Shown here piece after piece: positions 23,066 to 23,456 of a stretch of 64,000 nt of DNA (position 1 is its first letter; each line of letters begins with the position of its first letter). The notes below the pieces were generated by a model that had not been told where the DNA came from, made no database searches, and worked only from the letters and a program-made list of their open reading frames with translations. The stretch comes from Sulfolobales archaeon. Lineage in GTDB: Archaea > Thermoproteota > Thermoprotei_A > Sulfolobales > AG1. The DNA lies in assembly GCA_038867615.1 (NCBI GenBank), contig JAWBYA010000002.1, positions 192,001-256,000 of the forward strand. Reading direction: 5' to 3'. A program made the position numbers and the translations under genes.

Positions 23066-23392
23066 CTATCCGAAGAGAGCTGAAAGTCCTTGCTCCAGCT
23101 CCTCCTCGCTGACCTCTTTCTTCTCCTCTTTCTTCTCCTCCTCTGGCTTGGCTTGCTTCTCCTGCTGTGCTTGTGGTGCCTGTGGTGCTGGGGCAGCAAC
23201 AGCAGCCGCTGGTGCAAAGACAGCTGTTTTGATAACTTCGTCGATGTTTATCTGCTTTACAGCCGCCACCAGGCTTTTCAGCCTTACCTCGTCAACCTCT
23301 ATCCCAGCTGATAATAGGATCTTTCTCACATTATCTTCGCTAATCTCTTTACCCGCCGAGTGTAGGAGGAGGGTTGCGTAGACGTACTCTAT
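23066..23392 (-). CDS. rpl12: 50S stalk protein P1/L12; inferred ATA start
   Basis: (I)[21 protein letters not shown]...[14 protein letters not shown] upstream; in-frame TGA three codons before the ATA. Confidence 0.95.
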
Positions 23393-23456
23393 ACTGATTC
23401 ACCTATTAACAATACTTATCGGAGGGATATAAGTGTTAATCACCTGGTATAGATCC

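Follow-up and report, generated by a model that had tools for sequence, protein, structure and literature searches.

A putative near-cognate AUA start codon on the ribosomal stalk protein P1 gene (rpl12) of an uncultured Sulfolobales archaeon

Non-AUG start codons are retained on several bacterial genes whose products are abundant. The infC gene, encoding IF3, starts at AUU or AUC, and like the gene described here it is a conserved, well-expressed gene of the translation apparatus with a near-cognate AUN codon (PMC5499595). Feedback by the fidelity factor, an autoregulation in which IF3 acts on its own gene, has been shown for infC (PMC5499595). Clade-wide non-AUG starts are likewise present on the genes of other abundant bacterial proteins, namely GUG on tufA and hupB and UUG on cyaA; however, these codons are canonical for the fidelity factor (PMC5499595), whereas the P1 genes reported below have AUA, AUC or ACG, which are absent from the portions of the archaeal reviews used here (PMC7531240). 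That highly expressed bacterial genes keep non-AUG starts argues against equating a weak start with low expression. In cell-free bacterial translation from an optimised initiation region, an AUA mRNA behaved like its AUG counterpart at 20-40 °C, and nutrient limitation and ppGpp impaired all non-AUG mRNAs (PMC5499595).

Two published observations on archaea count against initiation at AUA. The aIF1 of S. solfataricus has been reported to discriminate against non-canonical start codons (PMC8211752, PMC6237735), and the part of an archaeal initiation review used here gives AUG, GUG and UUG as the only start codons (PMC7531240). A full-text search, with subscription journals and supplements outside its coverage, found no literature on AUA, AUC, ACG or CUG starts in archaeal genes or on the start of P1. 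Any parallel between P1 and infC is an analogy, as infC is a different gene in a different domain of life. The archaeal counterpart of the fidelity factor would be aIF1, which, unlike infC, starts at ATG in the genome studied here. A weak start on P1 looks paradoxical, because several copies of this protein are needed per ribosome.

The DNA comes from an uncultured hot-spring archaeon of the Sulfolobales, taken in the broad sense of the GTDB order. We analysed a stretch of 64,000 nucleotides from its genome (the window), which encodes P1 (L12P) on the minus strand (Table 1). The translation opens with the dimerisation domain, continues through an Ala/Pro hinge and an acidic Lys/Glu stretch, and ends in ...GLSALFG, a tail common to the homologues that we read. 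It matched profile positions 1-88 of PF00428 (Ribosomal_60s) with 64 bits (cut-off 28.1) and was the sole match above the cut-off in the 2.22-Mb assembly (94% complete), indicating a single-copy gene. A weaker second match was located at the C-terminus of a 367-amino-acid frame on another contig. This frame is presumably P0, in which case P1 does not adjoin P0 in this genome. A protein search found 395 homologues of P1. The N-terminal domain of P1 functions in dimerisation and P0 binding. Residues 1-57 of the window protein aligned without gaps to residues 1-57 of Pyrococcus horikoshii aP1 (PDB 3A1Y chain A; E = 1.9e-17), the same protein of the PF00428 family, placing I1 opposite M1. The solved protein starts with Met, at the place where the window has ATA, a codon for Ile in the code table.

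The original prediction proposed that rpl12 starts at this ATA, 7 nt after GGTG and in the place of Met1, with an in-frame TGA three codons upstream and the next canonical start at a GTG (23329). Sequence and translation confirmed the layout, in which the ATA is 6 nt after the complete GGTGA, and translation placed the TGA in frame. The longest ATG/GTG/TTG ORF in the P1 frame indeed began at the predicted GTG (23066-23329, 87 amino acids), and the ATA column agreed both with the canonical homologues and with the solved structure. Within the window, no ATG, GTG or TTG was present between the in-frame TGA and the conserved P1 N-terminus, of which GAG TAC GTC TAC GCA (EYVYA) directly follows the ATA. 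As the TGA is in the P1 frame, any start further upstream is shut off. The agreement of all computational tests supports the reading that translation begins at or beside the ATA.

Table 1. Features of the rpl12 (P1) locus, and further genes of the same genome that appear to need a non-canonical start. Plain coordinates are window positions; C numbers denote contigs of this assembly (G000).
Feature	Position	Strand	Basis or remark
P1 (L12P) CDS, 108 codons + TAG	23066..23392	-	Profile, structure alignment, database protein P0001
TAG stop of P1	23068-23066	-	
ATA, proposed initiation codon of rpl12/P1	23390..23392	-	Sequence, relatives, structure alignment
Spacer ATCAGT	23398-23393	-	Between GGTGA and ATA
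SD core GGTGA	23399..23403	-	Sequence; 6 nt 5' of ATA
In-frame TGA inside GGTGA	23399..23401	-	Three codons 5' of ATA
ATC, table-11 start in open frame	23396..23398	-	Abuts GGTGA; directly after TGA
GTG, first canonical in-frame start	23327..23329	-	Codon 22 (21 codons past ATA)
TATA-like box TTATAT	23427..23432	-	Centre ~26 nt 5' of first G of GGTGA
Run of six T, one base past TAG	23059..23064	-	Sequence only
uS3	35541-36248	-	NCBIfam
Orc1/Cdc6, ATA	53702-53704	+	NCBIfam
aIF2 alpha, CTG	C2:5459 (outside window)	+	NCBIfam
Glyceraldehyde dehydrogenase alpha, ATA	C22:6517	-	NCBIfam
ABC ATPase, ATA	C7:12519	-	NCBIfam; first canonical codon behind Walker A motif
Rio1, ATA	C8:42418	+	NCBIfam
PheRS alpha, ATA	C2:55036	+	NCBIfam
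Rrp4, CTG	C5:45106	+	NCBIfam
HisG	C5	-	NCBIfam
Isopropylmalate synthase (IPMS)	C8	-	NCBIfam
MoeA	C1:181545	+	NCBIfam
Nucleotidyltransferase	C3:7539	+	NCBIfam
ArgH, ACG	C3:51138	+	NCBIfam; weaker case
CedB-like protein			NCBIfam

We compared the Met1 codon of P1 across the order. Of 325 genomes searched, 293 gave a P1 match, and the start region was taken from 130 of these and then from 8 more. One 2.5-kb contig (G063:C97, locus L137, family f8) carried the same 45 nt upstream of P1 and the same first 12 codons as G167:C30 (L081, family f11). It is probably a contaminant of the G063 assembly, judging by this identity, and its omission left 137 genomes of 58 genera. Two equal-scoring P1 matches were present in each of two genomes, at G021:C1:331374-331691 and 969342-969659 (a complete genome) and on contigs C26 and C187 of G174, which suggests a duplicated region including rpl12.

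The Met1 column contained ATG in 90 genomes, GTG in 5, ATA in 27, ATC in 8, ACG in 6 and CTC in 1, so that 95 of 137 were canonical (ATG/GTG) and 42 were not. The CTC genome has a TTG two codons upstream; apart from this single case, the column holds ATG or one of its single-base neighbours in all genomes compared. No genus among the 58, 33 of which have at least two genomes, mixed canonical with non-canonical starts. Seventeen genera were entirely non-canonical, and four showed variation between ATA and ATC. All 14 genomes of the organism's own family were non-canonical (ATA 5, ATC 3, ACG 6), families f7, f10, f11 and f12 were mostly so, family f5 had ATA in 1 of 17 genomes, and families f2, f3, f4, f6, f8, f9 and f13 were canonical in all genomes sampled. 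The first 30 genomes examined had ATA in 8, ATC in 5, ACG in 6, GTG in 1 and ATG in 10, and 30 named MAG loci, partly the same as these, had ATA in 8, ATC in 4, GTG in 3, TTG in 2 and ATG in 13. Seven loci titled as lying outside Thermoproteota/Thermoprotei (L055-L061) had ATG (6) or GTG (1). The comparison with close relatives suggested with the original prediction thus came out in its favour, with the same ATA in two sister genomes (G002 and G003) and ATA, ATC or ACG stable within genera. By this sequence comparison, the non-canonical P1 state is old and widespread in related archaea.

Among the first 37 non-canonical P1 genes, 24 had an in-frame stop upstream with no ATG, GTG or TTG in between. 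In the other 13 a canonical codon is in frame further 5', in most cases the GTG of the SD-like motif at a distance of 2-5 codons, and this in-frame GTG could be the start of those genes; the window differs, as its GTG is out of frame. As a measure of SD strength we took the longest stretch that matches a general SD consensus of 12 bases. The mean longest match was 6.46 nt for 37 non-canonical P1 genes against 5.02 nt for 92 canonical ones (genus means 6.68 and 4.92), and in 33 of the 34 non-canonical genes the codon followed the A of GGTGA by 5-6 nt, in 25 of them by exactly 6 nt, against a spread of 5-9 nt and beyond in canonical genes; these length and spacing figures are descriptive, as kin genomes are non-independent. 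In the window's own genome, ATG starts behind GGTGA had 6 nt as their commonest spacing (28 of 59), the same as the P1 ATA. We also counted codons behind SD motifs in this genome. ATA came out on top of the non-canonical codons, with 14 at GGTGA and 7 at spacing 6, but unrelated codons reached 4-10 each, and we rejected this count as proof of enrichment. The 16S rRNA gene (G000 contig C9:47278-48314) is cut by the contig end, with only model positions 4-982 assembled, and a search of the assembly with a 16-base conserved motif did not find the 16S 3' end and anti-SD. We therefore take the pairing of GGTGA from the general archaeal 16S 3' end rather than from this organism's own.

A start two codons further upstream has to be weighed against this arrangement. 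Under the full start list of NCBI table 11 the P1 ORF opens at the ATC at 23398, which as a table-11 start begins the longest ORF under that table and would give a protein of 110 amino acids, Met-Ser-Ile-Glu-Tyr... All six genomes of the genus retain this ATC next to the TGA. However, an extended SD would account for its conservation just as well, and the ATC abuts GGTGA without a spacer, a gap that measures 4-7 nt in ATG genes of this genome with GGTGA. In other families, triplets such as ACA, ACT and GGG, none of them near-cognate, separate codon 1 from the in-frame stop, and the Met of canonical homologues falls exactly at the ATA column. Since no spacer follows the SD, we judged this ATC to be part of the ribosome-binding site rather than a start, and consider initiation there very unlikely.

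Several gene callers predict initiation at the GTG at 23329, which would yield an 87-amino-acid P1 that lacks residues 1-21. It is the first in-frame ATG, GTG or TTG, and shortened P1 forms of 82-88 amino acids are present in databases (P0009, P0078, P0079, P0091, P0098 and, by length only, P0007). Against this, 13 family members compared with the window over codons 2-22 showed 106 synonymous and 33 non-synonymous codon differences. These codons are under purifying, protein-level selection, and the 21 codons that a GTG start would drop are therefore translated. Over the 19 nt at -30 to -12, 9-15 positions differed in the 11 more distant family genomes and none in G002 and G003. Further, the residues concerned have counterparts in the solved N-terminal domain starting at its residue 1, the SD stands before the ATA and not before the GTG, and non-canonical relatives have their first downstream canonical codon at no fixed place, 3 to 64 codons off or past the fetched piece. 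A start at this GTG is therefore scarcely probable, and a shade less likely than one at the ATC.

Database entries already reflect the longer form. P0001 (108 amino acids, with M at position 1) equals the window ORF read from its ATA, and the NCBI-named P1 proteins P0002 and P0076 equal the ORFs of G001 from its ATC and of G152 from its ATA, with M placed on those codons. P0002 and P0076 describe the same gene, and their starts are pipeline calls made by homology. The same or sister genes are also deposited with a start at the GTG of the SD, which lengthens the protein (P0005, P0042, P0071), or at Val4 (P0104). The ATA or ATC start is thus already called by homology-guided annotation, though inconsistently.

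The codon might instead be ATG in the cell or in its RNA: the reads or the assembly could be wrong at this base, a minority allele could be involved, or the transcript could undergo an A-to-G change. Nothing in the data points to this, though contigs lose rare variants and the RNA contigs lie outside the site. The stretch was present in the sequencing runs of 12 studies, and contigs from three DNA runs (three studies) covered 23390-23392 with no differences; each of these runs is a possible source of this DNA, so at most two are independent. Contigs of one RNA run matched only 23549-23746, with 9 differences, which indicates that the RNA came from a relative. Within the genus, G002 and G003 have the identical ATA, and G001, G004 and G005, with P1 proteins 81-87% identical, have ATC. 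The sequencing error that the original prediction had wanted checked thus found no support in the DNA-run contigs or in the two sister genomes with the same codon, and on this sequence evidence the ATA is more than chance or error. ATA, ATC or ACG in relatives, stable within genera, would also require three different edits. We regard an ATG in the cell or RNA as highly improbable.

The non-canonical state appears to have arisen more than once in the order. In a small, unrooted quick-search tree of aIF2 alpha and uS3 (36 genomes, 438 columns, some rows half empty), the organism's own family grouped with the canonical families f3, f4 and f5 (SH-aLRT 95), and f7, f10, f11 and f12 fell on the opposite side with f2, f6, f8 and f13. 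At least four changes of the P1 start state were needed among the 29 rows of known state. From this placement, the own family looks to have gained its non-canonical P1 start independently of f7, f10, f11 and f12. Outside the order, 301 genomes of the phylum were searched, 297 had a P1 match, and the 52 sampled had ATG (33), TTG (4), GTG (3), ATC (7) or ATA (5). The 12 non-canonical cases (L290-L297, L266, L302, L310, L323) belong to families f19, f32, f50, f51 and f52, and all 12 have an in-frame GTG three codons upstream, inside a motif of the GGGGTGAT type. In these genomes the GTG of the SD-like motif may be the real P1 start.

That the GTG inside GGTGA, at or near the transcript 5' end, is a leaderless-type start in the window too, with the P1 frame reached by a shift, is barely credible: such a GTG is in frame in 5 of 14 family genomes, where it is annotated as the start (P0005, P0042), and in all 12 non-canonical cases outside the order, but in the window and 8 other family genomes it is out of frame with a stop in the P1 frame at that place, the frame that it opens ends at a stop after 17 codons, and there is no signal for a frameshift within three codons.

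The upstream flank carries a putative promoter dedicated to P1, with 23 bases between the TATA-like TTATAT and GGTGA. At -40 ± 2 from codon 1, a TATA-like motif begins in all 13 own-family genomes with 45 nt of flank, in 30 of 31 genomes of f3 and in 13 of 13 of f13; it was absent from this position in families f2, f5, f7 and f11. Given the spacing that archaea usually have between TATA box and transcript start, we infer that the 5' end of the P1 mRNA would be at about the first G of GGTGA, leaving a leader of ~11 nt that consists of the SD and the spacer. The six-T run past the stop codon could serve as an archaeal terminator. Folding of the first 71 nt was no more stable than that of shuffled sequences (z = +0.75), which marks the start region as unstructured, and an Rfam search at the P1 start returned only a chance match (E = 0.46).

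We consider it likely that P1 translation is initiated by the initiator tRNA on the near-cognate AUA, anchored by the SD. On this reading P1 would be its own small transcription unit, made up of the TATA box, the ~11-nt leader, the CDS and the T-run. GGUGA at the 5' end of the leader would pair with the 16S rRNA 3' end and, through its optimal spacing of 6 nt, bring the AUA into the P site, where, we infer, the initiator Met-tRNA (anticodon CAU) would read it with a third-base mismatch. P1 would then begin Met-Glu-Tyr-Val-Tyr-Ala, as in all other archaeal P1. A strong and optimally spaced SD would make the near-cognate codon good enough, and P1 would be the longest-kept case. The occurrence in the Met1 column of codons one base from AUG, with the exception of CTC, fits mismatch reading by the initiator tRNA, and a codon for a hydrophobic residue read by elongator tRNAs is disfavoured because the frame is closed just upstream. 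The initiator tRNA of this genome looks standard, with a CAT anticodon and a G-C-rich anticodon stem (it was not found at window positions 37000-38500), and aIF1 is present. An unusual initiator tRNA or a missing aIF1 was accordingly rejected as a cause.

We scanned the genome for other genes of this kind. Of 1,856 ORFs of at least 100 codons with coding-like codon usage, 502 had at least 12 codons between the upstream stop and the first ATG, GTG or TTG. The coding log-likelihood ratio (LLR) of this pre-start stretch was at least 10 in 31 and at least 5 in 68 of the 502, against 0.2% and 2.3% for the reverse-complement frames of the same stretches. Twenty candidates were compared with NCBIfam, 10 from a scan for SD motifs and 10 from the top of the LLR list. 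In 14 of these the family profile starts no later than the candidate codon and well 5' of the first canonical codon (Table 1); four had no family match and two had no need of a non-canonical start. Among the 14 without aIF2 alpha, uS3, Orc1/Cdc6 and the CedB-like protein, where an SD is present the codon 4-7 nt behind it is mostly ATA or CTG.

Three of these genes were followed further. In aIF2 alpha (loci L163-L192), CTG occupies the Met1 column behind GGGGTGAG in all six genomes of the genus, position 2 of profile NF003062 falls at residue 9, and the first canonical codon is 56 codons downstream. In sister genera the Met column has ATG (in g3 and in five of six g2 genomes), and G033 has ACG there with an in-frame stop three codons upstream. 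The CTG would thus give a near-cognate start to a subunit of the very factor delivering the initiator tRNA. The first 91 codons of uS3 contain no ATG, GTG or TTG, and position 3 of NF003219 falls at residue 12. Its Met column holds AAG (36224-36222) in all six genus genomes and ATA in G010, G011 and G012, and the other 21 have ATG or TTG in or just beside the column. A strong AGGAGGTG is found 16 nt 5' of the AAG, and the TAG of the preceding frame, presumably uL22, overlaps a conserved GCTAGC. In Orc1/Cdc6 the ATA directly follows a TAA (53699-53701), position 6 of NF001625 falls at residue 15, the first canonical codon is residue 65 and no SD is visible in front of the gene, which may thus have a leaderless non-canonical start.

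Similar scan rates were obtained in two complete control genomes, G310 (family f13, P1 with ATG; loci L213-L232) and G137 (family f10, P1 with ATC; loci L193-L212). Over 400 kb, the LLR was at least 10 in 2 and at least 5 in 12 of 412 ORFs in G310, and at least 10 in 3 and at least 5 in 8 of 343 in G137; two 400-kb pieces of the window's own genome gave 3-5 and 9-10 of 342-348 ORFs. We tested 8 of the 10 top control cases against NCBIfam. In G310 a non-canonical start is clearly needed by citrate synthase (profile position 3 at residue 18, first canonical codon at residue 66, ACG beside the profile-start column), by type-2 IPP isomerase (ATT 6 nt behind GAGGTGA) and by AroA; support was weak for a methyltransferase and an ABC ATPase was ambiguous. 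In G137 it is needed by glyceraldehyde dehydrogenase beta but not by IOR alpha, and one protein had no family. These rates led us to reject the idea that relaxation of start codons is special to this genome. Near-cognate starts in ~1-2% of genes look like a property of the order rather than of this genome.

Within this background, P1 was non-canonical in 5 of 16 other-family genomes of the first sample; in samples of 16 other-family genomes per gene, partly different ones, aIF2 alpha was so in one (G033, ACG) and uS3 in none. Judged by these codons, P1 is the most persistent non-canonical case of the group. The comparison adds to the known cases a P1 state that appears old, recurrent and persistent, in a group that as a whole would use such starts at a low rate.

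A further step would be to see the near-cognate start of P1 as a selected control device, arisen more than once in Thermoproteota, rather than as a tolerated accident. Several observations point in this direction: 17 genera are non-canonical throughout and none is mixed, ATA, ATC and ACG replace one another inside non-canonical genera without a return to ATG, the own family appears to have gained its state independently of f7, f10, f11 and f12, and P1 is non-canonical far more often than aIF2 alpha or uS3 in the same genomes. We hold this idea tentatively and think it rather unlikely to be right. If true, the need for a strong, exactly spaced SD would tie synthesis of the stalk protein to the initiation machinery, through aIF1/aIF2 activity and growth state, much as AUU does for bacterial IF3.

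Gene callers restricted to ATG, GTG and TTG shorten or lengthen P1 and at least 14 other genes of this genome, among them aIF2 alpha, uS3, Orc1/Cdc6, HisG and PheRS alpha. For the biology of the group, an essential and abundant ribosomal protein has AUA, AUC or ACG in its start position across genera and families, behind a strong and precisely spaced SD. P1 thus offers a natural test, by comparison between lineages, of the extent to which SD anchoring can override codon-anticodon fidelity in archaea.
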